Below the pieces are notes generated by a model. The model searched no databases. It worked only from the letters and a program-made list of their open reading frames with translations, and had not been told where the DNA came from. A stretch of DNA of 64,000 bases from Anaerolineae bacterium (lineage in GTDB: Bacteria > Chloroflexota > Anaerolineae > UBA7937 > B3-Chlor): the NCBI GenBank assembly GCA_034411995.1, contig DAOUME010000030.1:47409-111408 (forward strand). The letters are read 5' to 3'. Both the position numbers and the translations under genes were made by a program. Within the stretch, counting starts at the first letter, position 1. The number at the start of each line of letters is the position of its first letter. Of this stretch, positions 28,401-64,000 are shown piece after piece.

Positions 28401-28410
28401 GGTTCCGGTT

Positions 28411-45171: not shown

Positions 45172-46494
45172 TCACGCCTTCAAGTGGAGCCGGGTCTCGA
45201 GGAAGGCTTCCAGCTCAGCCGTCATCTGCGCATCATCCCACTCCCGCGCATCGACGGTGTCTGCCCGGAGCTCCAACACCGGGATGCCGACGTCCTCGAA
45301 GGTCTTCCTTATGAAGTAGGAGCCCTGGACCGCCTGCGTGCAACTGTTGGAGACCAAATGCACCACGCCGTCGATCCCGCTGTTCCGGGCCTCCTTCAGG
45401 TACCACTCGGTGTTCCAGGGTGGCATGTGCAGCATGTCCTCCATCCCCACGAACCGGCTGGCCAGAGCCCGGAGCGGCTCACCTCCGTACCGAGCATAAG
45501 CATCTGCCGCGAGGGCCAGATAGATCGACCACACGAAAACCGCCCCGTAGCGCTCCTCGAAGTGCTGATAGAAGCCGAGGTTGAACCAGAGGCCGGTCCC
45601 CAGCCACATGAGACGGACGAGCTCGTTCTCGCAGGCAACCAGACCCCGCTGCACCAGGTCCCTCGTCTCTTCGTAGAATCCGCAGGCGGCATCCACCGCC
45701 CACTGCGTGCCACGATGCCACTGGGGGATCATCACGCTGGGCATCTGATCCGTGACAGTGAGGGGCGCCGGTACCGTCTTGGCAATCAGATCGCGCGTCC
45801 GCACGTTGTACTCTTCTTGCTCATTGACCAGTTCCATAACCCGCCGGAATCTGGTCTCGCTGAAAGCCTTCCCGGTGGTAGCCTCCAGGAAGCGGATCAG
45901 TCCCTCCAGCTCTTCTACCATCACGTCCAGGCGGTGCGGCTCGAAGAGTTCCTCCCACTCCCACGCCGTCTTCTCCCACCACCTCTCGGGGACCTCCAGC
46001 GGCACGGTGCTCTCCAGCGGGTAGAACGGTATCCCAAACTCTCGCGACCAGAGCTCGAAGATCTTGGCCTGAGCGTCGCAAGTGAGGCGCGCGACCGCCA
46101 GGGTCGGTCGGGGCAGTCCGCCCCAGGGACCGTTCTCAGGATGAGGATCAAAGGCGGAGGCCAGAGAGAGCGAGCAGTAGCGACAGAGATCCTGGCGATA
46201 GCCCCTCCCGTTCAGAAGGCCCAGGTAGTACGGAGACATCTGCTTGGCCGAGCAGACCGCCGCCCACCACTGGTTGACCACGTAGGGGATGTCCATCGCG
46301 CGGAAGATCTCCTGGGGAACGTCGGCGTTGACGATGGCGAGAGGCTCACCCTCCGATACCCGTTCCCGCGTCCGCGCGAACCACTCTCTCTGGTAGTTGT
46401 TCGCCTCAGTGGCCGAACGTAAGCGCTTGACACTCGCACGACCGCTCCAGTTAGCGTTTCGTGTGTCTGGTGCCGAGTTCGCCCGCTCACTCAT
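45172..46494 (-). CDS. 2-hydroxyacyl-CoA dehydratase / benzoyl-CoA reductase BcrC-BadD-HgdB family protein (subunit 2)
   Basis: Track ORF trimmed to ATG 46494 (ATGAGTGA overlap with the upstream stop). IVNADVPQEIFRAMDIPYV and CRYCSLSL are typical family blocks. Confidence 0.8.
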   Translation of the reverse strand: MSERANSAPDTRNANWSGRASVKRLRSATEANNYQREWFARTRERVSEGEPLAIVNADVPQEIFRAMDIPYVVNQWWAAVCSAKQMSPYYLGLLNGRGYRQDLCRYCSLSLASAFDPHPENGPWGGLPRPTLAVARLTCDAQAKIFELWSREFGIPFYPLESTVPLEVPERWWEKTAWEWEELFEPHRLDVMVEELEGLIRFLEATTGKAFSETRFRRVMELVNEQEEYNVRTRDLIAKTVPAPLTVTDQMPSVMIPQWHRGTQWAVDAACGFYEETRDLVQRGLVACENELVRLMWLGTGLWFNLGFYQHFEERYGAVFVWSIYLALAADAYARYGGEPLRALASRFVGMEDMLHMPPWNTEWYLKEARNSGIDGVVHLVSNSCTQAVQGSYFIRKTFEDVGIPVLELRADTVDAREWDDAQMTAELEAFLETRLHLKA

Positions 46495-47665
46495 GACTCG
46501 ACACCTCACGACCCGCTCCTCGAGCAGGCTGGTCCCCTCCAGCGATGGACTTGACAAAAGCCTCCACCCGGTCGCGCAACTCGTCTGTCTTGACAAGCTT
46601 GTACGGTTGGCGATCGAGGAGCAGCACCGGGATCCCCTCCGACTCCAGCGCCCGCCGCTGCTCGGGGAAGTCCCACGACGGCGCATCGTCGGCATCGTAG
46701 ATGAAAGCGATCACGCCCTGGGCATCGGTGGCGTGCACGCCCTCCAACAACGCAGTGACCCGCTCCGACACCGTGGACTGGTGCGCACCTGGCTGTCGCA
46801 GGTGGTAGCGATCCACGATGCCGTCGATGGGGTCCGGGCTGATGTCGATCTGGCCAGCCGAATGCCTGTCGCCCCAGTCGTGGTCCTCGCCCACCACGAC
46901 CGCTCCGCACGACTCCACCAACTCATAGAACTGCACATGGTCTTGCGCGCTGCCAGTGACGAAGATCCGCACCCCAGAAAGCGGATCGCTCGCCCCAGCC
47001 TCCTCCAAGAACGCGGCCAGGAGACGGCTATGGCCGTGGCGTGGCAAGAACATCGACGCGCCGATGACCTCTAGCGCTTGTACGCCGCTCACGCGCGGAG
47101 GGCCGGGCGCACGCAACCCCGCCAGTTCCCGCAGCAAGCGGCGGTTTTCCTCGAAAACCCCGATAGCCTCGACGACCTCCTCATCGGCGATTTCTCGCCC
47201 ACACCACTGCTCGATCACGGACTTGAGATCGCGCGCGCGTTCGCGGTTGTATAGAGTGCTGGTTCGACGCCGTGTGTGGAGAAGATCGAAGAAGTACAGA
47301 TCGGGGATGGGGAGACTCGACTCGGCCATACGCAACGCGCGCAGGTAGTAGAACATCCGGACCAGCGCATCCGAGGAGCTTGCCACCACGAGGTGGTCCA
47401 GGTACGAATACGACCCATCGATGATCCGCAAGAACTGCGATCTCGCGCGAGGGTCAAAAGCCTGCTCTATGTAGCGATCAGCAACGTGGAGGTCACTTTC
47501 GGGATCGCCGCACACGCGGACCGGCAGTATCCCGGCGGCGAGCAGCAACTCCTCAGGGACATCGCTTCCCAAGCAGCCCGCCACCTGGCCGCCTTGTTCC
47601 TTCCACTCCAGAGCGGCCCGGTCTCTTTGTCGGTAGGCGCGGGCCAGCTCCCGCAAGACGCTCAC
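46487..47665 (-). CDS. 2-hydroxyacyl-CoA dehydratase / benzoyl-CoA reductase BcrC-BadD-HgdB family protein (subunit 1)
   Basis: 392 aa. The WKEQGGQVAGCLGSDVPEELLLAAGILPVRV N-terminus is typical of the family. The GTG start has no SD of its own and overlaps the stop of an 18-codon upstream ORF (GTGA). Confidence 0.8.
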   Translation of the reverse strand: MSVLRELARAYRQRDRAALEWKEQGGQVAGCLGSDVPEELLLAAGILPVRVCGDPESDLHVADRYIEQAFDPRARSQFLRIIDGSYSYLDHLVVASSSDALVRMFYYLRALRMAESSLPIPDLYFFDLLHTRRRTSTLYNRERARDLKSVIEQWCGREIADEEVVEAIGVFEENRRLLRELAGLRAPGPPRVSGVQALEVIGASMFLPRHGHSRLLAAFLEEAGASDPLSGVRIFVTGSAQDHVQFYELVESCGAVVVGEDHDWGDRHSAGQIDISPDPIDGIVDRYHLRQPGAHQSTVSERVTALLEGVHATDAQGVIAFIYDADDAPSWDFPEQRRALESEGIPVLLLDRQPYKLVKTDELRDRVEAFVKSIAGGDQPARGAGREVSSHE

Positions 47666-47931
47666 GGCGTCACCAGCAGCGCCTGGGGAAGAGAATCGGC
47701 GGTTTCCACTTCAGTCATCTGAGTTGTTCCTCTCCTTGCGGGATAGGCTGCCATTTTTAGATGCAGCCCTTGCCCGCCCGTCCCGCCATGGCGCTAGAGC
47801 CTTGGTGGGACGATTACTCTGGGCGGGCACACTGATCCGTGCCACTTCTCACAAGAGATCAAGCTGGCCCGATGCGTCCAGCTCGATCAACCGTTGGGGA
47901 CCACGAGGGGCGCATCCTCGACGAGGCCCGG

Positions 47932-50334
47932 CTAAGCCATCAACTCATGCTGGGTGCGAGCGATGATCTCGTCTTGTACGCTCCTCGTCAGTTGCACGAA
48001 GTAGGCGCTGTAGCCAGCCACTCTGACGATGAGATCACGGTATCTCTCCGGATGCTTCTGGGCATCCACCAGTGTGTCCTGGTCGATGACATTGAACTGC
48101 ACATGCTTTCCCCCGAAGCTGAAGTAGGTTTTGACCAGGGCCGCTAGCTTCCTGAGATCCTCTATGCCCTTCAATGCCGACGGATGGAACTTCATGTTCA
48201 GCAACGTGGCCTGAAACGGGACCTGGTCTATGGCCATGGCACTCCTCAGCACCGCCGTGGGCCCATGAGTGTCGCGGCCCTGTGCCGGCGACATCGTCCC
48301 GTCCGCCAATGTCTCACCGGCGTACCTGCCGTCGGGCGTCGCTCCTGTCAACGCTCCGCCGGGTGCGTGTGCGGTGATAGAGATACCAGTCGGCTTCGTC
48401 GTACCCCCCCAGATGGTGGGAAATGTCACCGCGGTGTCAGCCCAGAACTGGTAGAGTTCTGCAGCTATGGAGTCCACATACGGGTCACCGTTACCGTACT
48501 TAGGCGCAGCCAGACACACCTTCCGGATCTCTGCGTGCCCGTCCCCGTGCCAGTTGGCCTTGAGCGCGGCTGCCAGTTGCGCCTTGCTGACTCGCCCCTC
48601 GTCGAAGACCAGTTTCTTCATCGCCGCCAGAGAGTCAGCCACGTTTACCATCCCCACAACGTTCAGGGCAGAGCCATTCTCGAAGGGCAGCGTGCGGTCC
48701 AGGGCATCCCGGCCCACCTTGATCGCATCCATCATGAGGGCAGAATGCACGGCGTCGGGGAAGAGCTCCCTCTGCGCCTGCAGGAGGGTGTTGTGCTCCT
48801 CCGCAGCCAATCCCATGAAATGCGCAAGCTGTTCCTTGAAGGCGTTCATGAACTCATCGAAGGTCTCGAGGGACTCGAATTCTCCCGTCCGGGGCCCGAG
48901 TTGCCTCCCCGTCCGCGGCTCGACCCCGTTGTTGATGGTGATCTCCAAGACCAGCGGGGCGATGAACATCCCGAAGGCGTTGATGCGTGACCTGCCCGGG
49001 ATGTTGACGTCGAGGCATCCCGCCAGAGCGTAGTCTCGTGCTTCTCGAAGGGGGACACCCTGGCTGACCAGATATTCGATGTACGACTTGTCCCCGACGA
49101 AGGCGGGCATGCCGATCCCTGTCTTGACTACCTCCAGAGCTTTCACCATCAACGCTTCGGGCGTGCCCTCGTGGACCCTGACGGTTATGGTGTGATGAGG
49201 AGTCTGACAGTCCCGTGCCGCTTCTAGAATGAGGTACGACAGTTCGTTGGTGGCATCTTCGCCATCCGGGGTCACACCGCCGATAACCCAGTTGTGCCAC
49301 CTCGCCATCCCCGCCCACTTCTGCCTCTGGAGCTTCCCACCTCCCACGAAGTTCAACTGCATGACCTTGATGCGGAGACATTCCAGCAACTCCAGTACTT
49401 CCTCGTCGGTGATCACCCCTCGTTCCTGGTCCCGCCTGTAAAAGGGGTACATGAACTGGTCGAATCTGCCGCCCGGAGTGGTCCCGCTGGCGATCATCAC
49501 CCAGATGAACCAGAAAGACTGGACGGCCTCACGGAAGGTCCGAGCCGGGTTACCAGGCACCCATCGACAGGTCTCCGCTATCCTTTCCAGTTCCCTCTTT
49601 CGCACCGGATCCTCTTCAGAGGTAGCCATCTCCGCCGCCAGGTTGGCGAAACGCTCAGCGATGCGCAGGATGGCTTCGTAGGCTATGATCACCGACTTGA
49701 GGAAATCCGCCTTTTTCACGGCATCGGCATCCGTGAACCTCAGGCTCCTGAGCTCTTCTTCCGCTTCTGCCACTATGGCGTTCAGCCCTTCGTTCAGCAC
49801 CTTGGCATAGTCCACTACGATCAGACTCAAGCCCAGGCCCAGGCCCCATCCCACGCCGGCAGCTCCGGTCCCGCGCCCTTCCACTTTGTCTTTCCACGGC
49901 GGGCAAAGGATTCCAGACTGAATAAAAGGCCACAGTCTCTCGTCATCGTAGAACTGCCCCTGTCTCTCGTCCAGAGTCCTGCCCTGGCCCTTCCAGTAGT
50001 CGTCCATCGACCTGAGCAGGGCTTCGTCCTCCCGGGAGATGTCGAGGCCCGCCTCTCTCAACTCCTCCATGTCGTCTTCGGGCCATGTGGGGCCCAGAGA
50101 TCCAGCCTCCAGCCCCATCGGCTTGCTGGCGATGTTGCCAACGATGAGTTCATCATCTTCAATGAATATCGTCTTGTTCTCCAGGTAGTGTGCGGTGGCT
50201 TTCGCTCTCCTCACGATCTGCGGCAAGCCTTCCGTCTGTCTGTACGACTCCATGACCAGACGCACCTTCTCCACACAGATCGGGTACCTCTCCGGCTGAA
50301 GCCTTTCTCTCAACCGCTGTGCACGCTCGTTCAT
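47932..50334 (-). CDS. Glycyl-radical enzyme, PFL2/glycerol-dehydratase clade, unassigned specificity
   Basis: Glycyl motif RVAGYSAYFV near the C-terminus. Thiyl loop AGCLDV (nt 49020-49009). N-terminus ERAQRLRERL...CVEKVRL. Start set to ATG 50334, 52 nt after the activase stop; the track start is 50394. Confidence 0.9.
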   Translation of the reverse strand: MNERAQRLRERLQPERYPICVEKVRLVMESYRQTEGLPQIVRRAKATAHYLENKTIFIEDDELIVGNIASKPMGLEAGSLGPTWPEDDMEELREAGLDISREDEALLRSMDDYWKGQGRTLDERQGQFYDDERLWPFIQSGILCPPWKDKVEGRGTGAAGVGWGLGLGLSLIVVDYAKVLNEGLNAIVAEAEEELRSLRFTDADAVKKADFLKSVIIAYEAILRIAERFANLAAEMATSEEDPVRKRELERIAETCRWVPGNPARTFREAVQSFWFIWVMIASGTTPGGRFDQFMYPFYRRDQERGVITDEEVLELLECLRIKVMQLNFVGGGKLQRQKWAGMARWHNWVIGGVTPDGEDATNELSYLILEAARDCQTPHHTITVRVHEGTPEALMVKALEVVKTGIGMPAFVGDKSYIEYLVSQGVPLREARDYALAGCLDVNIPGRSRINAFGMFIAPLVLEITINNGVEPRTGRQLGPRTGEFESLETFDEFMNAFKEQLAHFMGLAAEEHNTLLQAQRELFPDAVHSALMMDAIKVGRDALDRTLPFENGSALNVVGMVNVADSLAAMKKLVFDEGRVSKAQLAAALKANWHGDGHAEIRKVCLAAPKYGNGDPYVDSIAAELYQFWADTAVTFPTIWGGTTKPTGISITAHAPGGALTGATPDGRYAGETLADGTMSPAQGRDTHGPTAVLRSAMAIDQVPFQATLLNMKFHPSALKGIEDLRKLAALVKTYFSFGGKHVQFNVIDQDTLVDAQKHPERYRDLIVRVAGYSAYFVQLTRSVQDEIIARTQHELMA

Positions 50335-50386
50335 GTCTATTCCCCACCTCGACCCGTAGTCCGGGGACCAGAACGGTGCTCGCGGC

Positions 50387-51322
50387 TCACCCACCCAAAT
50401 GGACGATCAAGCCGAAGGATTCGAAAACCTCCCCTATTTCCTCCATGTGTTCTTCGCTGGGTGGCTGGGCGGCAATGGACTTGCCAGGCTGCTCCATTCT
50501 GTCGTGCTTGGCCTCGCCGAGCCTGTGATAGGGAAGCAAGTGAACCTCGACTGAATCTCCGAGCTGAGTGGCTACGAATCGACCCGTCGCCGCGAGATTC
50601 TCGACCGTATCATTGTAGCCCGGAATCACCGGTACCCGCGCAAGCATCGGGATGCTCAGTTCACGATGGATTCGCTCTGCGTTCTCCAAGATCAGCTCGT
50701 TGGATACTCCGGTGTATCTCTGATGTTGCTCCGGGTCCATGTGTTTGAAGTCGTACAGTACGAGGTCGACGTGCTCCAGCACCTGCCGCACAGTCTGCCA
50801 AGGCGCGTATCCACAGGTGTCCAGGGTGGTGTGTATGCCGCTTTCTCTGCAGAGCCTGAACACCGCCGCGGTGAATTCGGGTTGGGCCAACGGCTCGCCA
50901 CCGCTCAACGTTGCGCCACCTCCCGATCTCTGGTAGAAGATGTCATCCGCCGCGACCTCATCGAACACCTCTCCGGCAGTGATCTGTCGTCCCATGAGGC
51001 TTCTGGCCTCGTTGGGACAGACCTCCGCACATTTGCCGGCACCTCTGCACCGGTCGCGGTCGGTGCGCGAACGCTCCCCCACGACCTCGATGGCTCCTTC
51101 GGGACAAGCGCGCACACACGCTCCGCATCCTGTGCAGTTCTCGGCCACGAAGAAGACCTCCGGTCGCGCGGTCTGCGATTCCGGATTCTGGCACCAGAGA
51201 CAGTGCAGAGGACATCCCTTGAGGAACACCGTGGTCCGGATCCCTGGACCGTCGTGTATAGAATAACGTTGCACGTTGAAGATCACACCTGGCGTGTCTC
51301 GTGCATCAGTCAGTCCCATCAA
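50387..51322 (-). CDS. Glycyl-radical-enzyme activating protein (radical SAM, with two auxiliary ferredoxin-like clusters)
   Basis: CPLHCLWC (C-x3-C-x2-C), CTGCGACVRACP, CRGAGKCAEVCP and GGGATLSGGEP. Confidence 0.9.
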   Translation of the reverse strand: MMGLTDARDTPGVIFNVQRYSIHDGPGIRTTVFLKGCPLHCLWCQNPESQTARPEVFFVAENCTGCGACVRACPEGAIEVVGERSRTDRDRCRGAGKCAEVCPNEARSLMGRQITAGEVFDEVAADDIFYQRSGGGATLSGGEPLAQPEFTAAVFRLCRESGIHTTLDTCGYAPWQTVRQVLEHVDLVLYDFKHMDPEQHQRYTGVSNELILENAERIHRELSIPMLARVPVIPGYNDTVENLAATGRFVATQLGDSVEVHLLPYHRLGEAKHDRMEQPGKSIAAQPPSEEHMEEIGEVFESFGLIVHLGG

Positions 51323-51362
51323 CGTTCCCGCTCTTCGTCTCCACGATCCGGCTCAGATGGAG

Positions 51363-52916: not shown

Positions 52917-53385
52917 TTCGTCCCCTCCAGCGGAACAGAGCTCCTCCCAGATCCATCGTGGAGCCGTTACAACCGCCTGCCGGTCGGCGATGAACCGAGC
53001 TTGCTGACCGCGTCGCTCGCCCTTTGCTCACGCGCCGGGCGAAAGCCGCAAGCGCTACGTCATCAACAGTGCCGGCATCGGGATGCACAGGTGCACCGTC
53101 GTGAACACCCTCGAAATCCGGAACATGGGCCATGGACCCGTTGGCGAGAGCCGCCATGAGGGCGGGTACCTTGGCCCTAGAGTCCAGGATCGAACTCTCC
53201 TGGGCGCCGGCTTCGGCCATCGCCAGGTCGACAAAGGCGCGACATCCCTCGCCAGGCGTGCTCGCGGCCAGGGTTACGCCTAGCGCCTCCAAGGAGCTTC
53301 TCTTGGCAGCATCCACAAGGTTATCGGGTATGTCATCGTAGCCGACGTCAGCTACGTTCTGGGCCAGGACCAACAATGCGTTCAT
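52864..53385 (-). pseudogene. MmgE/PrpD-family N-terminal fragment (truncated remnant)
   Basis: ATG 53385 overlaps the upstream ABC stop (ATGA). LAQNVADVGYDDIPDNLVDAAKRSSLEALGVTLAAS...ALANGSMAHVPDFEGVH...VHP matches only about the first 115-135 aa of ~450-aa PrpD-type proteins. The frame then decays into Arg/Ser-rich sequence and runs into the acyl-CoA ligase start. Confidence 0.6.
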
Positions 53386-55527: not shown

Positions 55528-55716
55528 CCCTATGACCCTGCTTCCAGACTACCCCTGCAGGCTTCCTGTGCATATCGAGATGCCCATGGCCGCAGCCTGG
55601 GATCTGCCTGCAGTAAGGCAACTTCTCTGCTCGGATTAGCCACCCGACGCGCGCACGGCTTGCTGGCCGTTGCGGGAACGGCTCCGTGCTTGATCTGGCT
55701 CTTGGCTCCCTACACA

Positions 55717-56556
55717 TCATGCCTGGAGAGCCGGATTCAGTATCTCGGTGAGCGTGTCTCCCAGAAGGTTAAAGGAAAGCACCGTGGCCACAATGGCTAC
55801 CCCGGGGACCACCGATAGCCACCATGCGGTCACCACGTAGGACCGGCCTTCGGCGATCATGGAGCCCCAGTCCGGCGTGGGGGGAGGCACGCCCACCCCC
55901 AGGAAACTCAAGGAAGACTCCATGATGATCACGATACCGACCTGCAGGGTGGCCAGAACGATCAGCGAACTGGCCACGTTGGGCAGGATGTGTCGCATCA
56001 TGATCTTAGTCTTAGACACCCCCGCAACCTGAGCCAGGGCCACAAAGTCCATTTCCCTGACTTTCAATGTCTCCCCCCTGGCCATGCGCGCGTACTCCGC
56101 CCACAGCACCAGGCTGATCACGAAGATGATGTTAAAGAAGCTTGGCCCAACCACCACCGCAAGCACCATGGCTAGCAGAATCGCGGGGAACGAGAAGGCC
56201 AGGTCCACCGCCCGCATGATGACTATGTTCAGCCAACCACCAAGGTAACCTGCCACTGCGCCCAGCAAGGATCCCGCGACGCCCGAGACGAGGATGGCCA
56301 GCACAGCCACGGCCAACGAGGTCCTGGCTCCGTAGACTAGCCTGCTGAGAGTGTCCCTGCCGAGCAAGTCGGTTCCCAGCAAATGGGCGCTGCTGCCTCC
56401 CTCCTGCCAGGCAGGCGGTGTCAGGCGGTCGCTCAAAGCACCCTTCGTTGGGTCATAGGGCGCGACGAATGGAGCAAACACCGCCACAAGCACCAACAGG
56501 CCGATGATCACCAGCCCTATGATGCTCATCACCATGGAGGATAGACCAATCCTCAT
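55717..56556 (-). CDS. ABC transporter permease (OppC/DppC-like)
   Basis: 279 aa, multi-pass membrane protein. EAA-type loop VALAQVAGVSKTKIMMRHILPN. Confidence 0.9.
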   Translation of the reverse strand: MRIGLSSMVMSIIGLVIIGLLVLVAVFAPFVAPYDPTKGALSDRLTPPAWQEGGSSAHLLGTDLLGRDTLSRLVYGARTSLAVAVLAILVSGVAGSLLGAVAGYLGGWLNIVIMRAVDLAFSFPAILLAMVLAVVVGPSFFNIIFVISLVLWAEYARMARGETLKVREMDFVALAQVAGVSKTKIMMRHILPNVASSLIVLATLQVGIVIIMESSLSFLGVGVPPPTPDWGSMIAEGRSYVVTAWWLSVVPGVAIVATVLSFNLLGDTLTEILNPALQA

Positions 56557-56656
56557 CTAGCCACCCCTGCTGACACTGACTCAAGCAGCCCATCGAGGCA
56601 GACATCCTGTGGTCGTGCAGGATGAACTGCTGGCCCAACCCCCGAACCACCAGGCG

Positions 56657-57577
56657 CTAGGAATACCTAATGCGCGGGTCAATATAAGCATAGAGGACAT
56701 CGACCACCAGATTGATCACCAGGAACACCGTGGCCATAAACAGGACCACCGCTTGAAGCACAGGATAGTCGCGGACCATCACCGAGTCGAACGCGAGACG
56801 CCCGACCCCCGGCCAGGCGAAGACCGTTTCCACGACCACGGTTCCGGTCACCATACGTCCAAAGACCGTGCCCAGGTACGTGATAACGGGGATCAGGCTG
56901 TTTCGCAAAGCATGCTTCCAGATTACCGTCGTCTCTGACAGTCCCTTTATCCGGGCCAGCTTCACATACTCGCTGTCGAGAGCCTCCAGCATTCCAGCGC
57001 GCGTCAGACGCAGGAAGGCGGCGACCATGAAGGCGCTCAAGGCAAACACAGGAAGGACGAACTGTTCTGGCCTTCCATATCCCGATGTCGGCAGCCAACC
57101 CAACTGTACGCCGAAAACGTACATGGCCACGATGCCCAGCCAAAAGACAGGAGTCGCCTGCCCGAGCAGGGCCAAGACTCGGGAAATCGTGTCCACAAAC
57201 GACCCCTTTTTCACGGCCGCCAACACCCCTAGCGGCAGTCCGATGAGGATACTGACCGTGACGGATATCGAGGCCAGTTGCACGGTGGCCGGAAGCCTTT
57301 CCAGAACCAGCTCGAGGGCGGGAGCTCGCTCGCCTCTGATCGATCTGCCCAGGTCCCCTCTGACTGCATTCCACACGAATATCGCATATTGCTCCACCAG
57401 GGGCTTGTCCAAGCCCAACTGGCGAGTGAGCATCTGCTGATCCTCCTCTGTGCTGAACTCGCTCAGCAGCAGAGCCACCGGGTCGCCAGTCAGTCTTCCC
57501 AGAATGAAGACGATTATGCTAACCAAGAACAGCGTTACCAGGCCCTGCATCAGGCGCCTGACAATGTATCGTTGCAT
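56657..57577 (-). CDS. ABC transporter permease (OppB/DppB-like)
   Basis: 306 aa. N-terminus IVRRLMQGLVTLFLVSIIVFILGRL and EAA loop YVKLARIKGLSETTVIWKHALRNS. Confidence 0.9.
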   Translation of the reverse strand: MQRYIVRRLMQGLVTLFLVSIIVFILGRLTGDPVALLLSEFSTEEDQQMLTRQLGLDKPLVEQYAIFVWNAVRGDLGRSIRGERAPALELVLERLPATVQLASISVTVSILIGLPLGVLAAVKKGSFVDTISRVLALLGQATPVFWLGIVAMYVFGVQLGWLPTSGYGRPEQFVLPVFALSAFMVAAFLRLTRAGMLEALDSEYVKLARIKGLSETTVIWKHALRNSLIPVITYLGTVFGRMVTGTVVVETVFAWPGVGRLAFDSVMVRDYPVLQAVVLFMATVFLVINLVVDVLYAYIDPRIRYS

Positions 57578-57882
57578 ACCTGTCCCGCTTTAGCTCACGC
57601 CCGTTGGCCCGTTGCGCATCCGTTCGCTGGCGCTGCCTCGCCCGACCCTCGGCCAGGCAACGACTCCCGCCGCCAGGTTTCTCCGGCACCTAGGGACTAT
57701 AGCAGATCGATGGAGAGCGGACTACTCCGGCAGAGGCTCTGCGCCTATTTGTGCCACCAAGGCCAGACCTCCGAGGCCTCCCGAGGCTCAAACCAGCCAG
57801 CGCCATGTGTCTACGGCTCATTCGCCGGCCGAGACCTCGGAGGTCCCACCCCGCGCACAGACTTCGACTTGCTGGTACGAAG

Positions 57883-59538
57883 CTACGGTCGAGTTATCAA
57901 CTCGATGTTGAACGGCCTCATACGTATGGTCGGCCAATTCCCAATCTGGTCGCTAGCACCGTAAGGCTCGTTGGCATACACGAGGAAAACTCCAGCCGCG
58001 TCATCATGAAGCAGTTGGCCGAACTCCCGGGCTAGTTCTTCTCTCTTCCCAGCATCGAGCTCGGTCAGCATTTGATTCAGCAAAGCCGCGCTTTCCTCTG
58101 TCGCATAAGATGTGAACTTGCCCTGGGGGTCATAGAAGATAGTCGCTGGTGTCAACGCTTCAGCGAAGGGCTGGCCTCTCTGAGTAAAGAGATAGTCGTT
58201 TGCCTGACCGGCCAGCAACTCATCTCTCACAGAACCCCAGTCCGTGGGCACTATGGTGACATCGATCCCGATCTCCTGCCAGTACATGGCCACAGCCTCG
58301 CCGATGGTGGGAAGCTCGGCCCCCGGATTCATGGTGAGGGTCTTCAGGCTGAGCGGAAAGCCATCAGGGTAGCCAGCCTCCGCTAGCAGCTGTTTCGCCA
58401 CATCTGGATCGTAAGGATAGGGTTCTATGTCGATCCACCCAGGAACAGGGTTGGAGGAACCTGCTGGTATCGCTTCACCGTGGAATATGGTCTCAGCGAT
58501 GGCTTCCCTGTCCACCGCGTAATTGAGGGCCTGGCGAACCCTCGTGTCTGCCCACGGCTGATCCGCGACGTAGCGTTCAGACTGGCTCTCGACGACCCCG
58601 CCAAACCAGATCAGTGGCACCCAGCTTCCAGGGATAGAAACCACACTGAGTCCCGCCCCGGTGACCGCTTCCACAGAGTCATAGGAGATAGGGGCCAGAT
58701 CCACCTCGCCCGCCAGCAGCATCGCTACCCTGGTTGCTTCCTCCGGCACGAGCAGGAAGGTAACAGTCTCAAACTCGGGTGTTACCCGCCAGTGGTTCTC
58801 GATACCCTCGATCGTCTTCAACACGATCGGCCCTGCTGCCTGATGCTCCTCCGCGAGAGTGTAGGGACCGGTCCCGATCGGGTGGGAGTTTGCCTCTTCG
58901 TCACCCACGGATTCCACATACTTCTTGCATACGATCATCCCTCCAGCGTTGTAGTCCATCAGTAGGCTGGGGACAAGCACAGCGTATGGCTTTTGGAGGT
59001 GAAGAACGACCGTATAAGGGTCTGAGACCTCGATGGTGTCGATCAGTGCCCGTAGCTGCCCCGCCGGGCTGCCAATCGAGTCCTCACCGATCATCCTTTC
59101 CCAGCTATACTTGACATCCTCGCCGGTCATTTCGCCCCAGCCCTCATGGAACTGAACACCCTGGCGTAGATGGAAGGTGTACGTCATCCCATCCGGTGAC
59201 ATCTCCCAACTCGTGGCCAGCCCGGGTTGAGGCTCCGCCGTCTCTGGATCCGCGTACGCCAGGAACTCGTAGATCAGACCCAGATATGTCTGGCGTGCCA
59301 CGCCCCCGTTCCAGGGCAAGAAGGTGTCCTCCGCAAAGGAAGACAGGGCCACAGTCAAGCTGCCCGTCGGTCCTGCTGGAGTTGGAGTGGAAACTGGAGT
59401 TGGCGGTGCGGTAGGGGCTGCAGTAGGAGGCACAGTGGGGGCTGCAGTGGGGACAGGCGTTCCACAGGCACCCAGCAGCATTACACCCACGAGCATCGCC
59501 GCCAGCAAGGTGAACCTAAGCGACTTGACCTCTCTCAT
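57883..59538 (-). CDS. ABC transporter substrate-binding lipoprotein, family 5
   Basis: Track ORF 57883..59625 trimmed to ATG 59538 (GGAGGGAG upstream). Signal peptide with lipobox LLGAC, a Pro/Thr/Ala linker, and the family-5 block PGLATSWE. Confidence 0.9.
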   Translation of the reverse strand: MREVKSLRFTLLAAMLVGVMLLGACGTPVPTAAPTVPPTAAPTAPPTPVSTPTPAGPTGSLTVALSSFAEDTFLPWNGGVARQTYLGLIYEFLAYADPETAEPQPGLATSWEMSPDGMTYTFHLRQGVQFHEGWGEMTGEDVKYSWERMIGEDSIGSPAGQLRALIDTIEVSDPYTVVLHLQKPYAVLVPSLLMDYNAGGMIVCKKYVESVGDEEANSHPIGTGPYTLAEEHQAAGPIVLKTIEGIENHWRVTPEFETVTFLLVPEEATRVAMLLAGEVDLAPISYDSVEAVTGAGLSVVSIPGSWVPLIWFGGVVESQSERYVADQPWADTRVRQALNYAVDREAIAETIFHGEAIPAGSSNPVPGWIDIEPYPYDPDVAKQLLAEAGYPDGFPLSLKTLTMNPGAELPTIGEAVAMYWQEIGIDVTIVPTDWGSVRDELLAGQANDYLFTQRGQPFAEALTPATIFYDPQGKFTSYATEESAALLNQMLTELDAGKREELAREFGQLLHDDAAGVFLVYANEPYGASDQIGNWPTIRMRPFNIELITRP

Positions 59539-59809
59539 TTCTCCCTCCTCTTCTCTGTGTAGATTTGGCCTTGCCGACCCTAAGCTTTTCATCTCTTCCT
59601 CCCTTTCTCCGTGTTGATTCCACATCGCCTGTTAGAGTTTTGTCATCTCTCCCTCCCGATCTTCCGATCCTCGTCTAATGCGAATCCACTTCCGTGATGT
59701 AGTTGACAGGGAGCCCCCGCAACTGTCTGTTCGTCCCTCCACACGCGTGCCCAGCGGCCTGTCACAGAAAGGTGTTGCGCACTGAGCACCGCTGACTACC
59801 AGACTTCAC

Positions 59810-62209
59810 TTACAGCGGCTGCCCGTGCTCCGTCCGCCCGATAATCTCGTCTTGGACCGCCTTGGTTAGCTGCACGAAGTAGGCGCTGTAGCCAGCCACC
59901 CTCACCACCAGATCCCGGTGTTGCTCCGGATGTCTTTGTGCGTCCACGAGCGTATCCGCAGAGACGACGTTGAACTGCACGTGCTTCCCCCCGAGGTTGA
60001 AGTAGGTCTTGATCAAGGTCGACAGCTTCTTCAAGTCCTCAGTGTTTTTCAGCGCCGAGGGATGGAACTTCAGGTTCATCAGAGTGGACTGGTAGGGCAC
60101 CTGATCGATCTTTGCCGCGCTCTTGATCAGCGCCGTCGGCCCACGAGTATCCCTACCCCGCATGGCCGACATCGTACCGTCTGCCAAACACTCACCGGCA
60201 CACCGGCCATCCGGTGTTGCCCCAGTCAGCGCGCCCCCGGGCGCCTGCGAGGTGATGGAGATAGCGGCCGGCATATGCCTACCGCCCAGGCGGGTCTCCA
60301 GCGTGGCCGCGGTATCTGCCCAGAACTGGTACAGTTCCTTCGCTACGGAATCCACGTAATCGTCATCATTACCGTACTTGGGGGCCGCCAGGCACTCCCT
60401 ACGCAGCTCCTCGTACCCGTTACCGTGCCAGTTCGCCGCCAACGCCGCTTTGAGTTGCGACATGCTGACCCGTGCCTCGTCGAAGACGAGCTTCTTCACC
60501 GCCGCCAACGAGTCCGCGACGTTGATCATACCCACGAGGTTCAGCACGGCTCCGTTCTCGAAGGGCATCGTGCGATCGTACATGTCCTTTCCCACTTCGA
60601 TGGCGTCGGCCATCAGCGAAGATCGCACCGGATCTGGGAAGAGATCTCTGGCGACGGCCAACTCCACATTGTTGCGCTCGGCCGCCAAGCCCATGAAGTG
60701 GGCCAATTGCTTCTTGAATGCGGCCATCAACTCCTCGAACGAGGAGAAGTCCTCCAGGTCTCCCGTTTCCAGACCCACCCGCAGGCCAGTATTGGGGTCT
60801 ACTCCGTTGTGCATGAAGATGTCGAGAACGAGCGGCACGATGAACATGCCATAGGGTCCAATCCTGGACCTACCCATGATGTTCACATCGAGACATCCGG
60901 TTATGACGTAGTCTCGCGCCGTCCGCAGCGGGACGCCATGGTTGAGCAAGAACTCGATGTAGGACTTGTCTCCCACAAAGGCGGGCATGCCGATGCCGGT
61001 CTTGACCACCTCCAGAGCTTTGAGCATCAGGGCTTCAGGGGTTCGCTCATGCACCCTCAGCGTAATGGTGTGATGCGGAGTGGGGCACTCTAGGGCCGCC
61101 TGCAAGATGAGGTAGGTCAGTTCGTTGGTGGCGTCCTCTCCTTCAGGGGTCACACCACCGATGGTCCAGTTGTGCCACTTGGCCAACCCGGCGTTCTTCT
61201 GGCGCAGGAGCCGACCAGAAGTCCTGTTCAACTGCATATCCTTGATGCGCAGACACTCTAGCAGTTCCAGGACCTGGTCGTCGGTGATGCTGTCCTCTTC
61301 CCTATCCCTCTTGTAGAAGGGGTACATGTACTGGTCAAACCGACCCGCAGCGGCGGTCGTCTGCGGGTTCGTGACCAGGAACATATACCAGAAAGACTGC
61401 ATGGCCTCGTGGAAAGTTCTCGCTGGTTCAGCGGGGACCCGGCGACACATCTCGGAGATATGCACTAGCTCAGCCTTGCGGTTCGGATCTCGCTCTGTGA
61501 CCGCCATTTCCGCGGCCAAATCCGCGAACCTGTTGGCGAAACGGATGATGGCCTGATGTGCTTCAATCACTGACCACAGAAAGTAGGCCTTGCCTGCCGA
61601 GTCTACCCCCCCGAATCTCGTGCGGGCCAGTTCGGCTTGAGCTTCTGCGATGATGCTGTCGAGGCCAGAGTTCAGCACTTTGGCAAAGTCGTACCCGCAC
61701 AGAACGAAGCCAGGGCCCAGACCCATGCCCCCCTGGGCGTATCCTCCGCCGCTGCCCTCCTCCCTGTTCTTCCAGGGAGGAAGCACTACGCCGGACTGCA
61801 TGAAGGGCCAGAGCCTCTCGTCGTCGTACAGCTCCCCCGTTCTGGCGACGAGGTTGCTGTGCCTCCAGTAGTCGTTGAGCTCCCTCAGTTCTGCTTCGTC
61901 CTTGTCTGAAGCTGTGAACCCCTCTTGCTTCAGAGCATCTATCTCGTCCTGGGGCCAGATGGCGACGTCGCAGTCGAACTCCACCCCCATGGGTTTGCTG
62001 GCAGCGTTGCCAACTATCAGTTCATCTTCTTCGATGAATATCGGTATGTTGTCCAGGACATTGGCCAAAGCCTCGGCCCGTCGCAGGATCTGGGGCTCGC
62101 CCTCAGTCTGCCTCAACGACTCGGTGAGAAGCCTGATCTTCTCGACGCAGAGGGGATACTGGTCCACGAAAAGGCGTTCTCTCAGTCTCTCTATTCTCTC
62201 CTTGCCCAT
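59810..62209 (-). CDS. Glycyl-radical enzyme, paralogue of 47932-50334
   Basis: 799 aa. RVAGYSAYFV and thiyl loop TGCLDV (nt 60898-60887). It is about two-thirds identical to the other GRE over the blocks I aligned by eye. A 29-nt identical DNA stretch covers the glycyl motif (59871-59899 versus 47993-48021). Confidence 0.9.
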   Translation of the reverse strand: MGKERIERLRERLFVDQYPLCVEKIRLLTESLRQTEGEPQILRRAEALANVLDNIPIFIEEDELIVGNAASKPMGVEFDCDVAIWPQDEIDALKQEGFTASDKDEAELRELNDYWRHSNLVARTGELYDDERLWPFMQSGVVLPPWKNREEGSGGGYAQGGMGLGPGFVLCGYDFAKVLNSGLDSIIAEAQAELARTRFGGVDSAGKAYFLWSVIEAHQAIIRFANRFADLAAEMAVTERDPNRKAELVHISEMCRRVPAEPARTFHEAMQSFWYMFLVTNPQTTAAAGRFDQYMYPFYKRDREEDSITDDQVLELLECLRIKDMQLNRTSGRLLRQKNAGLAKWHNWTIGGVTPEGEDATNELTYLILQAALECPTPHHTITLRVHERTPEALMLKALEVVKTGIGMPAFVGDKSYIEFLLNHGVPLRTARDYVITGCLDVNIMGRSRIGPYGMFIVPLVLDIFMHNGVDPNTGLRVGLETGDLEDFSSFEELMAAFKKQLAHFMGLAAERNNVELAVARDLFPDPVRSSLMADAIEVGKDMYDRTMPFENGAVLNLVGMINVADSLAAVKKLVFDEARVSMSQLKAALAANWHGNGYEELRRECLAAPKYGNDDDYVDSVAKELYQFWADTAATLETRLGGRHMPAAISITSQAPGGALTGATPDGRCAGECLADGTMSAMRGRDTRGPTALIKSAAKIDQVPYQSTLMNLKFHPSALKNTEDLKKLSTLIKTYFNLGGKHVQFNVVSADTLVDAQRHPEQHRDLVVRVAGYSAYFVQLTKAVQDEIIGRTEHGQPL

Positions 62210-62300
62210 CTGTGGCCCCTATCGGTCGCCTCAGCTTGCCTACTGAAACTGCTGAAAGGACAAGTGCATCTCGACCAGCACACCAGCGAATCGCGCTGCT

Positions 62301-63545
62301 TCAGTACACTCCATACTCTCTGGTGGCATCCACCCACACCTTGACCAGCTCCGGGTCCGCCTCGGCCATGGATGAACTGGAGCCCATGACGAAACCGCCA
62401 CCTTTGCCTACGACCTCGATCAGTTCCCTGGTCAGAGCCCGAATCTGCTCTGGAGTTCCGCCTCGAAGCAACGACACCGGGAACCCGGCCATGATGCACA
62501 TGGTATCGCCCAGCACGTCCTTCACCTTGAACAGATCGCTGCGGTCGAACCGACCGATGGTCTTGCCCCTCGGCAATTCGCGCAGATACTGAAGGCGCTG
62601 GTCGTAGCTGCCCTCGTAAAAGACATGAGGAGTGACCCCGCCATCGATCAGGCCCAACAACATGGCTTTCAAGGATGGCCAGTAGAAGGTCTCGAACTGC
62701 TCCAGGGACATGAACCCGTCGGAGCCACGATGGAGAGCGACGAAGCAATAGAGACTCCCACTCGCCTTCGTAACAGCCACCGTGTGGTTCACGAGTATCG
62801 GCAGCACCTTCTCCTGCGCGGCCAAGAGCTTGTCCGGACAACGATACATGTCCAGCATGATGCCCCGCATACCCCTCAGGGTATCGGACAAGAAGTCGAA
62901 GGGAGCGGTGAGATAAGCGCCACTTCTCAGCGACATGGGAAACCCCAGGGCCTCCATCCTCTGCGCGGCGACCTTCCTGGCAGCCCTGGTCCGCACCATC
63001 TCCTTGCTCGTCTCCAGGAGCGCCTCCAATGAGGCCATGACGCTAGGCTCGTCCAGCACTCTGACGTTGGGCAGCGCGGGGTAGCCCATCAGCATGATGG
63101 GCAAACGCGGCAGCTCTGCAAAGCCCTCCAGGGCAGAATAGGCCCGCGGCAAGAAGGTACGTAAGGTGAAGTCAGTGGGATCGTCCAGGAAGGCATCGTA
63201 TTCCTCTGCCTTGAGGTACTCCCCTTCGACGAACTGGAAGGTCCCGTTGGGGCCCAAGCCGTAGCCCGGCCACTTCGTCTGCCTGTCGCCCAGCAGCACG
63301 CTGGGCAGTGGCGAGAATGTCGCCCCTCGGGCTATGTCGGGCTCGAAGTACAGCGCGTACTTTTCCAGGAGCGCCTGAGCCTTGTCATGGTCGCGCTCCA
63401 ATTCCTCGTAAGTGATCCCGCCCAGGCGAGCCAGCATGTATCCAAAGTTGAGATCGATGGGCACGCGATCCGGCACCCTCAGCTCGTAGGCATCCTTAAC
63501 ACGCTTGGTTCGCTCGGCCAGCAACTCTTCAGGCGTCTTGGGCAT
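62301..63545 (-). CDS. Uroporphyrinogen-decarboxylase (URO-D) family protein (MtaA/CmuA-like fold, function unknown)
   Basis: The APFDFLSDTLRGMRGIMLDMY and HVFYEGSYD..LQYL blocks resemble the URO-D/methyltransferase TIM-barrel family. The start is ambiguous (ATG 63545, 63584 or 63611). I chose 63545 because MPKTPEELLAERTKRV looks like a family N-terminus and it avoids overlap with the MFS gene. Confidence 0.55.
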   Translation of the reverse strand: MPKTPEELLAERTKRVKDAYELRVPDRVPIDLNFGYMLARLGGITYEELERDHDKAQALLEKYALYFEPDIARGATFSPLPSVLLGDRQTKWPGYGLGPNGTFQFVEGEYLKAEEYDAFLDDPTDFTLRTFLPRAYSALEGFAELPRLPIMLMGYPALPNVRVLDEPSVMASLEALLETSKEMVRTRAARKVAAQRMEALGFPMSLRSGAYLTAPFDFLSDTLRGMRGIMLDMYRCPDKLLAAQEKVLPILVNHTVAVTKASGSLYCFVALHRGSDGFMSLEQFETFYWPSLKAMLLGLIDGGVTPHVFYEGSYDQRLQYLRELPRGKTIGRFDRSDLFKVKDVLGDTMCIMAGFPVSLLRGGTPEQIRALTRELIEVVGKGGGFVMGSSSSMAEADPELVKVWVDATREYGVY

Positions 63546-63597
63546 CCGCCTGCCTTCTTCTGCTCTCCTGGCGAACCGACGCATAGCCTCTACTGGC

Positions 63598-64000
63598 TCA
63601 GCTTGGACCATCGGCCCCAGCCTTCCGCCTACTCTTCCGGAAACGCCCCAGGCTCACATACCCTACGAAGCCCCCCAGACCCAGGAGCGGGGCGCAGCCG
63701 CCTACTCTGAACGCGCCTCCGTATCCCCAGACAGGCACCATCTGACCAGCAGCAGCAGATCCTGCGCTGACTCCCAGGTCAAGCATGGCTCAGTAGGTGG
63801 CCATCGCCGAGCCTCGGTGATCTGGCTCGGCAACATCCATCACCAGAGCCTGGAGGGCCGGGTCCGCACTCGCCAAGCCGATGCCGCACACAGCCCCTGC
63901 CAGGGCCAACATGCCCGTGGACGAGGCGTGGGCGACCAACATGAGGCCAGCGCACACCAACAACATCCCTGGGACGATGGAGACCGAACGGCCGTAGCTG
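63598..64000 (-). pseudogene. MFS-type transporter, C-terminal part, interrupted by one in-frame TGA (63792-63790). The 5' end lies outside the window.
   Basis: My translation of the minus strand from the right edge gives ...GMLLVCAGLMLVAHASSTGMLALAGAVCGIGLASADPALQALVMDVAEPDHRGSAMATY*AMLDLGVSAGSAAAGQMVPVWGYGGAF... Both halves are in the same frame, and together they form the usual MFS '..P..RG.A.G.Y......G...G' region. Confidence 0.6.

Follow-up and report, generated by a model that had tools for sequence, protein, structure and literature searches.

A modular gene cluster of an Anaerolineae bacterium joins divergent glycyl radical enzymes with an atypical HGD-D enzyme pair

Introduction

A stretch of 64,000 nucleotides from contig DAOUME010000030.1 of an Anaerolineae bacterium (“the window”) carries on its minus strand, from position 64000 down to 45172, an unbroken run of 14 genes, which was delineated by open reading frames (ORFs) in combination with Pfam and NCBIfam scans. 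The run comprises two glycyl radical enzymes (GREs) with a GRE-activating enzyme, an Opp/Dpp-type ATP-binding cassette (ABC) importer, an AMP-forming acyl-coenzyme A (CoA) ligase and an alpha-beta pair of HGD-D-family subunits. We read it as a cluster of modular make-up for the anaerobic breakdown of an imported organic acid, in which import, a GRE reaction, CoA activation and an HGD-like step would follow one another, and we assign this reading a probability of about one half. It builds on a gene order that recurs in related bacteria, on the co-location of GRE and HGD genes in several phyla and on a CoA-activating enzyme that accompanies the two wherever they meet. Both enzyme groups depart from their characterised relatives. 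An earlier analysis of the same DNA (the original prediction) had listed the same 14 genes, and their placement and domains were found as named there.

Conserved gene order and co-location of the two enzyme modules

Related loci screened for homologous genes are designated by L-numbers. Two Anaerolineae loci, L001 and L002, with GREs 91% and 88% identical to that of the window, share a common order of genes for the solute-binding protein (SBP), two permeases, two ATPases, a PrpD-family protein, the ligase, the activase, GRE-A, a PGA_cap-domain protein and the two HGD-D subunits. On a single further Anaerolineae contig (L037/L048), genes for a URO-D-like protein, GRE-B, the Opp importer, PrpD, the activase and GRE-A occur together without the ligase. 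The closest relative of the window by its URO-D-like protein (91% identity), L171, harbours in order a GntR/FCD regulator, a family III CoA-transferase, a major facilitator superfamily (MFS) transporter, the URO-D-like protein, GRE-B and SBP. Since the regulator and the CoA-transferase lie upstream of the MFS gene in L171, the cluster of the window probably extends beyond position 64000.

For 80 GRE loci, ORFs were clustered all against all and families were counted within 10 kb of the GRE. An activase was found in 43 of the 80 loci and a carboxylate- or peptide-type transporter of any kind in 46 (MatC/CitMHS in 16, family-5 SBP in 15, TRAP in 10 and TctABC in 7). A second GRE was present in 35 loci, PrpD in 24, PGA_cap in 20 and a PucR-type regulator in 18; the ligase family and family III CoA-transferases each occurred in 12 loci, family I CoA-transferases and URO-D-like proteins each in 6, and acyl-CoA dehydrogenase with electron-transfer flavoprotein (ETF) in 4-5. 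Many gut loci are minimal and consist of PucR, GRE, MatC, GRE and activase only. In Youngiibacter fragilis 232.1 and Y. multivorans DSM 6139 (L102, L104), the locus runs from MatC, GRE, activase and CitMHS through PGA_cap, HGD alpha-beta and CoA-transferase to a downstream module of ligase, CoA-transferase, thiolase and short-chain dehydrogenase (SDR). Carboxylesterases, S15 hydrolases and P450s likewise occur near GREs of this kind.

Any HGD-family gene was counted in 13 of the 80 GRE loci, which belong to Chloroflexota, Bacillota, Acidobacteriota and Proteobacteria, and a CoA ligase or CoA-transferase is encoded in all 13. Conversely, among 80 HGD loci, 10 contain a GRE of the clade described below (the CxD clade), and all GREs beside the HGD module fall into this clade except that of L125. 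The chance of meeting a CxD GRE in a random 20-kb stretch is about 1e-5 (377 x 20 kb / 596 Gb), and the co-location of GRE and HGD genes is thus far above chance. The coupling is optional, as each module occurs far more often without the other. The original prediction had taken the run for a functionally linked set and had named a lack of synteny in other genomes as grounds for dismissing it as a chance juxtaposition; the recurring gene order and the pairing in several phyla bear the linkage out. The search for further genomes with GRE, ligase and BcrBC-like pair that it had proposed yielded the joint loci given above, although the modules mostly stand apart.

This pattern also allows a looser interpretation, according to which independent modules share a catabolic island and have a common neighbourhood, perhaps a regulator or a substrate class in common, without forming a linear pathway. 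The units would be MFS/MT-I-like/GRE-B (MT-I, methyltransferase I), Opp plus PrpD, ligase-activase-GRE-A and PGA_cap-HGD pair. Such independence would account for the fact that about 84% of the GRE loci lack an HGD gene and about 87% of the HGD loci lack a GRE, that the HGD pair has a tight operon of its own with PGA_cap and family III CoA-transferase, in aerobes too, and that close relatives vary (L037 lacks the ligase, the window PrpD and PGA_cap), as do the GRE partners at large. It fits less well with a co-location that is specific to the CxD clade (bar L125), spans four phyla and far exceeds chance, with the CoA-activating gene in every joint locus, and with the single strand and short gaps in the window, L001 and L002. 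We consider independent modules unlikely on balance, yet deserving of serious weight.

The CxD clade of glycyl radical enzymes

GRE-A and GRE-B show 66% identity to each other and match the PFL-like domain (PF02901, 6.8e-168 and 8.4e-167) as well as the glycyl radical domain (PF01228, 9.5e-33 and 5.2e-33). Both carry the glycine motif RVAGYSAYF and a single catalytic cysteine in the loop G-C-L-D, which had already been recognized; the length of GRE-A was corrected from 820 to 800 amino acids (start at M21), as in all homologues. The sole activase detected in the window by BLAST (50387-51322) features the CxxxCxxC motif. Judged by domains, glycine and cysteine motifs and the nearby cognate activase, both proteins are predicted to be members of the PFL-like GRE superfamily.

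The nearest solved relative of both is the B12-independent glycerol dehydratase (1r8w, 2e-155), followed by 9f3w (8e-147) and 5i2a (2e-145). However, neither GRE reaches any named equivalog cutoff in NCBIfam, nor that of the subfamily TIGR01774 (599 and 596 vs 678). For the eliminase and isomerase equivalogs compared (GD/PFL2, i.e., glycerol dehydratase, CutC, HypD, HpsG and HpfG), the other scores were 573 against a cutoff of 1000, 518-549 against 1050 and 498-516 against 1100. With all equivalogs below cutoff and no close solved structure, assignment to a known GRE function was rejected.

In a residue alignment with 1r8w, the catalytic cysteine of GRE-A coincides with Cys433, Asp stands in place of Glu435, Leu of His164 and Ala of Asp447, and His281 is deleted; counted from M21, the cysteine and aspartate of the GRE-A loop are Cys440 and Asp442. 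A glycerol or diol dehydratase was discarded on these replacements. The glutamate of the C-x-E motif is kept in all characterised C-O, C-N and C-S eliminases and isomerases, where it hydrogen-bonds or deprotonates a substrate hydroxyl (PMC13450708, June 2026). Because this general base is an aspartate in the CxD GREs and the diol-binding residues of glycerol dehydratase are missing, the CxD GREs are not a known eliminase.

Other GRE classes fit no better. Both proteins score below the cutoffs for arylacetate decarboxylases, i.e., indoleacetate decarboxylase (IAD, 521-525 vs 1100) and the large subunit of 4-hydroxyphenylacetate decarboxylase (HPAD, 407-409 vs 1150), whose active-site residues are given in the review (PMC13450708), the source of these reference residues in place of an own alignment, as C-x-E for HPAD and IAD and Gln484 for PhdB; the window GREs have C-x-D. 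The GREs resemble X-succinate synthases less than eliminases (1e-89 to 1e-95; 4pkc 2.5e-89, 9o8u 1.4e-94). Small subunits of X-succinate synthases are not encoded beside the GRE genes, where the gaps of 52, 91, 184 and 266 nt are too short and contain nothing but a non-conserved ORF of 30 amino acids. None of the classes in the June 2026 review (PMC13450708) matches the CxD clade or its partners, and no assignment or description of clade or cluster was found in the GRE literature searched, including papers from 2025-2026. The view that this GRE subtype lacks an assigned function thus holds.

The clade is large and widespread. A protein search yielded more than 120 protein clusters at 71% identity or above, with members from Anaerolineae, Dehalococcoidia, Deltaproteobacteria/Desulfobacterota, Spirochaetes, Dethiobacter and Moorellales, and in a profile scan of species-representative genomes 377 stretches matched. 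The best 79 of these 377 loci add Acidobacteriota, Proteobacteria and many Bacillota from gut and rumen; Geosporobacter ferrireducens IRF9 and Clostridium sp. OM02-18AC are among the isolates represented. Overall, the clade spans at least six phyla and bacteria from peat, groundwater, sediment and the ruminant and human gut. Of 116 full-length GREs from the loci, 111 have a cysteine loop of the form G-C-[LIVM]-D, and the glycine and cysteine motifs are conserved clade-wide. GRE-A and GRE-B fall into two old paralogue groups, an A-type (n=39) and a B-type group (n=16; group 9), and the gut members hold parallel A-like and B-like groups. Both types are co-located in at least 12 loci, mostly with a single activase.

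An atypical subfamily of HGD-D proteins

The last two genes of the run both encode HGD-D proteins (PF06050) and overlap by 8 nt. Among solved structures, the beta-like subunit is closest to BzdN (8s02_B, 4e-33), followed by HadC (3o3m_B, 8e-22), and the alpha-like subunit to MbdO (9g87_A, 4.8e-20), followed by BzdO and HadB. The beta-like subunit lacks the cysteine columns common to BzdN and HadC and reads SSSDAL and DADDAP at these sites. According to family alignments, Ser/Thr and Asp/Glu replace the beta-subunit cysteines in every GRE-linked member of the subfamily, whereas the canonical Dehalococcoidia HGD-D sequences retain them; the canonical sequences of L043 and L065 share these columns with BzdN and HadC. 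In the alpha-like subunit C104, C139 and C385 align with cysteines of MbdO, and C107 is additional. An alignment of 61 sequences including that of the window showed all four residues in 42 of the 60 homologues, mostly from Bacillota; all four are missing in 13 actinomycete loci and in three others (a Chloroflexi, an Actinomycetota and an Actinomadura locus). Cysteine ligands for an Fe-S cluster are therefore not present in both HGD-D subunits, as the beta-like partner lacks them.

Nor is an activator encoded nearby. BLAST with two BcrAD proteins detected no BcrAD ATPase anywhere in the 64 kb of the window; of the 169 related loci that were screened, only three had one, all of them Dehalococcoidia loci with canonical HGD-D genes, and an HgdC- or BcrAD-type ATPase within 10 kb was absent from every locus of the window’s HGD subfamily. 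In the Dehalococcoidia loci L041, L043 and L044 (about 1-7.3 kb in L041), canonical, cysteine-bearing HGD-D genes and two BcrAD_BadFG ATPases adjoin a divergent pair of CxD GREs, together with an 836-aa Fe-S flavoprotein, thiolase, a DUF35 zinc-ribbon protein, PrpD, PGA_cap, ligase and activase. These loci represent a fuller, benzoyl-CoA-reductase-like or bbs-like context.

A reciprocal profile scan with the alpha-like subunit returned at least 584 matching stretches. Orthologues with 52-71% identity were found in Paenibacillus, Bacillus alkalicola, Cohnella, Amycolatopsis, Streptomyces and Lentzea, and the profile matches also include Evansella; the window’s subfamily thus occurs in aerobes and is not restricted to strict anaerobes. 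In the 80 best HGD loci, the beta-like subunit accompanies the alpha-like one in 78 cases, family III CoA-transferase in 75-77, PGA_cap in 55-56, Opp ATPases in 48, a family-5 SBP in 23, a CxD GRE in 10, PrpD in 2 and BcrAD in none. The core operon of the subfamily consists of PGA_cap, HGD-beta, HGD-alpha and family III CoA-transferase. Loci L131-L164 (Amycolatopsis, Streptomyces, Lentzea, Prauserella and others) combine an ABC transporter, PGA_cap, family III CoA-transferase, HGD-beta and HGD-alpha, and in the copies sampled the four alpha cysteines are replaced by E, S, G or a gap. To judge from these residues, the actinomycete enzyme is apparently cluster-free.

The pair of the window belongs to an atypical HGD-D subfamily. 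Because the beta cysteines are lost, no ATPase is encoded nearby, aerobes carry the subfamily and the actinomycete copies sampled lack the alpha cysteines as well, an ATP-driven ketyl-radical mechanism is unlikely for it. The cysteine and ATPase analyses likewise weakened the candidate of a canonical ketyl-radical dehydratase or reductase. The cluster had been thought to unite two classes of radical enzymes, a notion that loses ground since the second enzyme is probably not a classical radical enzyme.

Organization of the locus and the surrounding genes

The genes of the window were called from the ORF list together with Pfam and NCBIfam scans, and their coordinates are compiled in Table 1; the order of transcription corresponds to descending window coordinates. 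The start of the URO-D-like ORF may alternatively lie at 63584 or 63611, and its homologues mostly comprise 414-415 amino acids. Long ORFs of 390-480 amino acids lie opposite real genes, e.g., at 45133-46422 (+), 49294-50748 (+) and 59918-61093 (+). These are artefacts of high G+C content, and their counterparts opposite homologous genes in related loci cluster by themselves. Rfam gave no match at gathering score anywhere in the window, and thus no riboswitch or other RNA clue to a ligand. A scan for promoters and terminators produced fewer matches than shuffled sequence.

Table 1. Genes and other features of the cluster in the window, listed in the direction of transcription, with the convergent LarA-like gene at the end.
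Feature	Position	Strand	Evidence
MFS transporter, 3' part, runs off window end; in-frame TGA at 63790-63792	63598-64000	-	translation; Pfam MFS_1 7.5e-16
URO-D-fold protein, MT-I-related	62301-63545	-	Pfam URO-D 5.6e-14
GRE-B, B-type CxD paralogue, 799 aa; TGCLDVN and RVAGYSAYF	59810-62209	-	Pfam PFL-like 8.4e-167 and Gly_radical
Family-5 solute-binding protein of Opp/Dpp-type ABC importer; Pro/Thr-rich N-terminal linker	57883-59625	-	Pfam SBP_bac_5 3.3e-74; NCBIfam matches weak
Two ABC permeases	56657-57577 and 55717-56556	-	ORFs; colinear with L001 and L002 at 82-83% DNA identity
Two OppD/F-type ABC ATPases	54556-55527 and 53382-54353	-	ORFs; BLAST matches in related loci
MmgE/PrpD-family remnant; homology limited to about the first 117 codons	53006-53406	-	Pfam MmgE_PrpD_N, model positions 3-102 of 244
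AMP-forming acyl-CoA ligase, 517 aa	51363-52916	-	Pfam AMP-binding 1.3e-87; NCBIfam PRK06187 530.7 bits (cutoff 476)
GRE-activating radical SAM enzyme; CPLHCLWC and two ferredoxin-like cluster motifs	50387-51322	-	TIGR02494 358.8 bits (cutoff 174); Pfam Radical_SAM, Fer4
GRE-A, A-type CxD paralogue, 800 aa from M21 of the ORF; AGCLDVN and RVAGYSAYF	47932-50334	-	Pfam
Intergenic gap, 266 nt, with 30-aa “uORF” (47662-47754)	47666-47931	-	colinearity with L001; small-ORF list
HGD-D beta-like subunit, BzdN/HadC-like, 392 aa	46487-47665	-	Pfam HGD-D 5.8e-50
HGD-D alpha-like subunit, MbdO/BzdO/HadB-like, 440 aa	45172-46494	-	Pfam HGD-D 4.4e-52
LarA-like nickel-pincer-cofactor-dependent isomerase, group 22; possible accessory gene, convergent with HGD pair	43383-44687	+	NCBIfam NF052515 460 bits (cutoff 400)

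Farther away on the minus strand (26496-35231) lie three tandem genes of the tungsten/molybdenum aldehyde:ferredoxin oxidoreductase (AOR) family (26.5-34.4 kb), an FMN reductase and a GntR/FCD regulator. The AORs, 11 kb from the cluster, had been taken as BamB-like and in keeping with aromatic-acid chemistry; this had to be abandoned, as they match true AORs at 3e-88 and BamB at 3e-68. Between them and the cluster lie unrelated sugar and peptidase genes. AOR genes also occur near CxD GREs in L020 and L041. The region from 1 to 26400 contains a second Opp-type system (about 19.4-25.1 kb), an M29-like peptidase, an M19 dipeptidase, a PD40/DPP-IV-like protein, a galactarate/altronate-dehydratase-like gene (8472-10016), histidinol dehydrogenase, an SDR and a split glycine-cleavage P protein, and is a general catabolic neighbourhood for peptides and sugar acids.

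Lesions and selection in the local copy

Compared to its relatives, the copy of the window is damaged at several sites. DNA colinearity revealed that positions 6236-7330 of L001, about 1.1 kb covering most of PrpD, are replaced by 62 nt, with the junction at 53006-53067 of the window; an intact PrpD of 457-469 amino acids resides at the corresponding position in L001 and L002. Likewise, positions 12405-13716 of L001 are replaced by 16 nt, a deletion of about 1.3 kb with its junction at about 47915-47930, which removed the entire PGA_cap gene (12533-13666 in L001; Pfam PGA_cap 8e-68 for the L001 and L002 genes). The MFS gene contains an in-frame TGA between ATY and AMLDLG, which is most simply explained by a change from TGG (Trp) and may reflect either a genuine nonsense mutation or a fault of the assembly. 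The PrpD scar and the broken MFS gene had been noticed before, and the loss of PGA_cap had been missed. At this site the original prediction had listed a small upstream ORF (“uORF”). A role of it as a regulatory leader was rejected: the reading frame is not conserved, and the gap that contains it is the scar of the PGA_cap deletion.

Selection was gauged from the ratio of nonsynonymous to synonymous substitution (dN/dS) by a three-taxon Nei-Gojobori comparison of nine genes, in which the window branch was set against two relatives. The ratio ranged from 0.07 to 0.21 on the window branch for all nine genes tested (GRE-A 0.10, ligase 0.09, HGD-beta 0.21, permeases 0.07-0.10, ATPases about 0.10); for HGD-alpha it was 0.18, as compared to 0.08 in the relatives. 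The retained genes are hence under purifying selection, with at most a mild relaxation of the alpha-like subunit.

A decaying remnant, i.e., a local cluster that no longer functions and is heading for loss, would be in line with three lesions within 19 kb (the MFS TGA, the internal deletion in PrpD and the complete deletion of PGA_cap), with the fact that, among the enzyme partners of A-type GREs, PrpD and PGA_cap are met most often, and with the roughly twofold elevated ratio of HGD-alpha. However, eleven genes have full-length frames and all catalytic motifs, the dN/dS values are far from neutral, PrpD and PGA_cap are optional in many other loci, and the MFS stop codon could be an assembly error. 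Decay of this kind is improbable, and pseudogenisation of the whole cluster was rejected on the dN/dS values: the cluster is trimmed, not dead.

Importer, ligase and accessory proteins

The Opp/Dpp-type importer is complete in a single block of five genes (family-5 SBP, two permeases and two ATPases), which L001 and L002 possess likewise. The URO-D-like protein has CdmB as its nearest solved relative (9rui, 6.8e-33; best stretch residues 234-427). CdmB is the MT-I component of a corrinoid methyltransferase system and close to O-demethylases (PMC13222342). The URO-D-like gene adjoins CxD GREs in L012, L018, L020, L023, L047 and L048, and also in L171. A 61% identical homologue in Neomoorella glycerini has corrinoid proteins, MFS transporters and a pterin-binding MT-II as neighbours; the respective region (L174, CP046244.1, 470617-491873) contains five URO-D-like MT-I, several corrinoid-protein and six MFS genes as well as MT-II. 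Neither a corrinoid protein nor MT-II is encoded beside the URO-D-like gene in the window cluster, L171, L012 or L048, and a corrinoid protein adjoins the gene in none of the GRE-linked loci. The nearest solved relatives of the ligase are a fatty-acyl-CoA synthase and feruloyl-CoA synthetase (8weu, 8wev).

The PrpD family includes iminodisuccinate epimerase, and the nearest named family of PGA_cap is the lasso-peptide epimerase MslH. Conjecturally, PGA_cap and PrpD may feed different substrate isomers into the pathway. Since the window has lost PGA_cap, the relative of an epimerase, the LarA-like isomerase might replace it. BLAST found no match to the LarA-like protein in the related loci screened, and its link to the cluster is likewise conjectural.

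Several of these components could belong to a pathway for an imported plant aromatic acid with methoxyl or hydroxyl groups, in which the MT-I-like protein would take part in demethylation, the GREs would decarboxylate or otherwise modify its side chain, the ligase would form the aryl- or arylalkyl-CoA ester, and a BzdNO/MbdNO-like reduction or dehydration would follow. The subunits of the HGD-like pair have BzdN (4e-33) and MbdO (4.8e-20) as best solved relatives, with HadC and HadB behind them; CdmB and O-demethylase MT-I are relatives of the URO-D-like protein, which has its homologue in the corrinoid methyltransferase island of Neomoorella; feruloyl-CoA synthetase is among the nearest relatives of the ligase; carboxylesterases, S15 hydrolases and P450s are found near the GREs; the Dehalococcoidia loci add canonical HGD-D, two BcrAD ATPases, thiolase and DUF35 beside the GRE pair; and the carriers live mainly in peat, soil, groundwater and the herbivore gut. 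Yet no BcrAD or BzdPQ ATPase is located near the cysteine-depleted subfamily, and dearomatisation without ATP or a beta cluster is implausible. Moreover, corrinoid proteins are missing beside the MT-I-like gene in all GRE-linked loci, the commonest transporters are of dicarboxylate and tricarboxylate types, and the GREs remain below every arylacetate decarboxylase cutoff. Taken together, an aromatic route of this type is improbable.

A proposed route for an imported organic acid

The preferred reading, a catabolic cluster for an imported organic acid, would proceed as follows. After import of the organic acid, the paired CxD GREs would perform a radical step on it; the many loci with only GRE(s), activase, transporter and regulator suggest that they act on the free acid. 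The ligase would then convert the product into a CoA thioester, a task that may fall to the family III CoA-transferase in relatives. Next, the HGD-like alpha-beta enzyme would act on the acyl-CoA, and an elimination or hydration adjacent to the thioester is its most likely reaction. Given the missing canonical cysteines of the beta-like subunit and the lack of an activator gene in the vicinity, this step would probably require no ATP-driven injection of electrons. The breakdown may be finished in relatives by acyl-CoA dehydrogenase plus ETF, short-chain dehydrogenase and thiolase. The presence of a CoA enzyme in 13 of 13 HGD-carrying GRE loci fits the order of import, GRE, CoA ester and HGD-like step. 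The original prediction had outlined the same four steps, which agree with the gene content apart from the ketyl-radical type of the last one.

Several points weigh against this route. No member of the clade has a characterised substrate, product or activity. A fixed linear pathway is not demonstrated, as the HGD pair is missing from the majority of GRE loci and the GRE from the majority of HGD loci, those of aerobes included. The GRE step is placed before the CoA step solely on grounds of gene content. An ATPase serving as activator could sit elsewhere in the genome; the local copy carries the lesions in MFS, PrpD and PGA_cap; and the alpha-like subunit evolves under a dN/dS about twofold higher than in the relatives. 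Finally, the clues to the substrate conflict among three classes of compounds. The MatC/CitMHS, TctABC and TRAP transporters favour di- and tricarboxylates, whereas the MT-I-like protein, the feruloyl-CoA-synthetase-like ligase, the Bzd/Mbd-like pair, the esterases, the P450s and the habitats favour plant aromatic acids, and the Opp importer and peptidases leave open peptide-like compounds.

A more far-reaching version would have the CxD GREs catalyse a new type of reaction on a common (poly)carboxylic or aromatic acid of plant or microbial origin, as an obligate A/B pair (a heteromer, or two enzymes for two isomers), and pass the product on to an activator-free HgdAB-family enzyme that lacks the beta-subunit cluster. 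We regard this version as tentative and quite unlikely in its entirety.

Comparison with known radical enzyme systems

The GREs were compared with glycerol dehydratase, CutC, propanediol dehydratase, IslA/IseG, HpsG/HpfG, HypD, HplG and YbiW/PflD. They share with these eliminases and isomerases the fold, the domain pair, RVAGYS-YF, the catalytic cysteine and a dedicated activase of the two-ferredoxin type, and find their best sequence matches among them. In contrast, they feature C-x-D rather than C-x-E and reach no equivalog cutoff, and the partners of CxD GREs are carboxylate transporters and CoA enzymes rather than aldehyde dehydrogenases or microcompartment shells. HypD, HplG, HpyG and HpzG offer a parallel of another kind: paralogous GREs handle related isomers there and are joined by epimerases, and here A- and B-type GREs occur with PGA_cap and PrpD. 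Unlike in the hydroxyproline system, however, the score for NF043068 is 516 against a cutoff of 1100, and a role of PGA_cap and PrpD as epimerases is conjectural.

The HGD-like pair resembles FldABC and HadBC plus HadA in its two adjacent HGD-D subunits, and the wider subfamily adds a family III CoA-transferase in the operon, which mirrors the arrangement of FldA (a CoA-transferase) with FldBC. The differences are considerable: an ATPase of HgdC/FldI/HadI type is lacking within 10 kb, the beta cysteines are lost, aerobes are among the members, the equivalog score is 82 against a cutoff of 750, and the window has a ligase where the other loci have the CoA-transferase. To BzdNO and MbdNO (BcrBC) the pair is linked by its best solved relatives for both subunits and by a substrate that, in the known system, is a ligase-made CoA ester. 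Yet the BzdPQ/BcrAD ATPase is absent, the beta cysteines are lost, and the scores for TIGR03190 and TIGR03191 (120 and 76) stay far below cutoffs of about 450.

The bss/bbs route of anaerobic toluene degradation has a comparable layout: a GRE takes on the demanding first reaction, and a beta-oxidation-like breakdown follows, in which family III CoA-transferase, acyl-CoA dehydrogenase plus ETF, and thiolase plus the zinc-ribbon protein DUF35 take part. These partner families are also found near CxD GREs. Nevertheless, the window GREs are much less similar to X-succinate synthases, the small subunits are missing, and acid importers would be superfluous for a hydrocarbon.

Implications for glycyl radical and HGD-D enzymes

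The reactions of anaerobic carbon, nitrogen and sulphur turnover that are chemically most demanding are catalysed by GREs, and to our knowledge every newly assigned GRE clade so far gave a new pathway (choline, hydroxyproline, isethionate, anhydro-sugars). The CxD clade is large, has a cysteine-loop motif that diverges from that of characterised eliminases and isomerases, conserves the A/B pairing and is linked to an atypical HGD-D subfamily. This HgdAB-like subfamily, which is devoid of a nearby activator and of the beta cysteines and is borne by aerobes, challenges the view of HGD-D proteins as ATP-primed radical enzymes throughout. Cultured carriers exist, namely Youngiibacter fragilis, Y. 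multivorans, Geosporobacter ferrireducens and Paenibacillus fonticola, and the question is therefore directly testable. If the CxD GREs indeed catalyse a new reaction and the HGD-like enzyme works without an activator, they would constitute a previously unrecognised anaerobic route of global distribution, in soil, peat, sediment and the herbivore gut.

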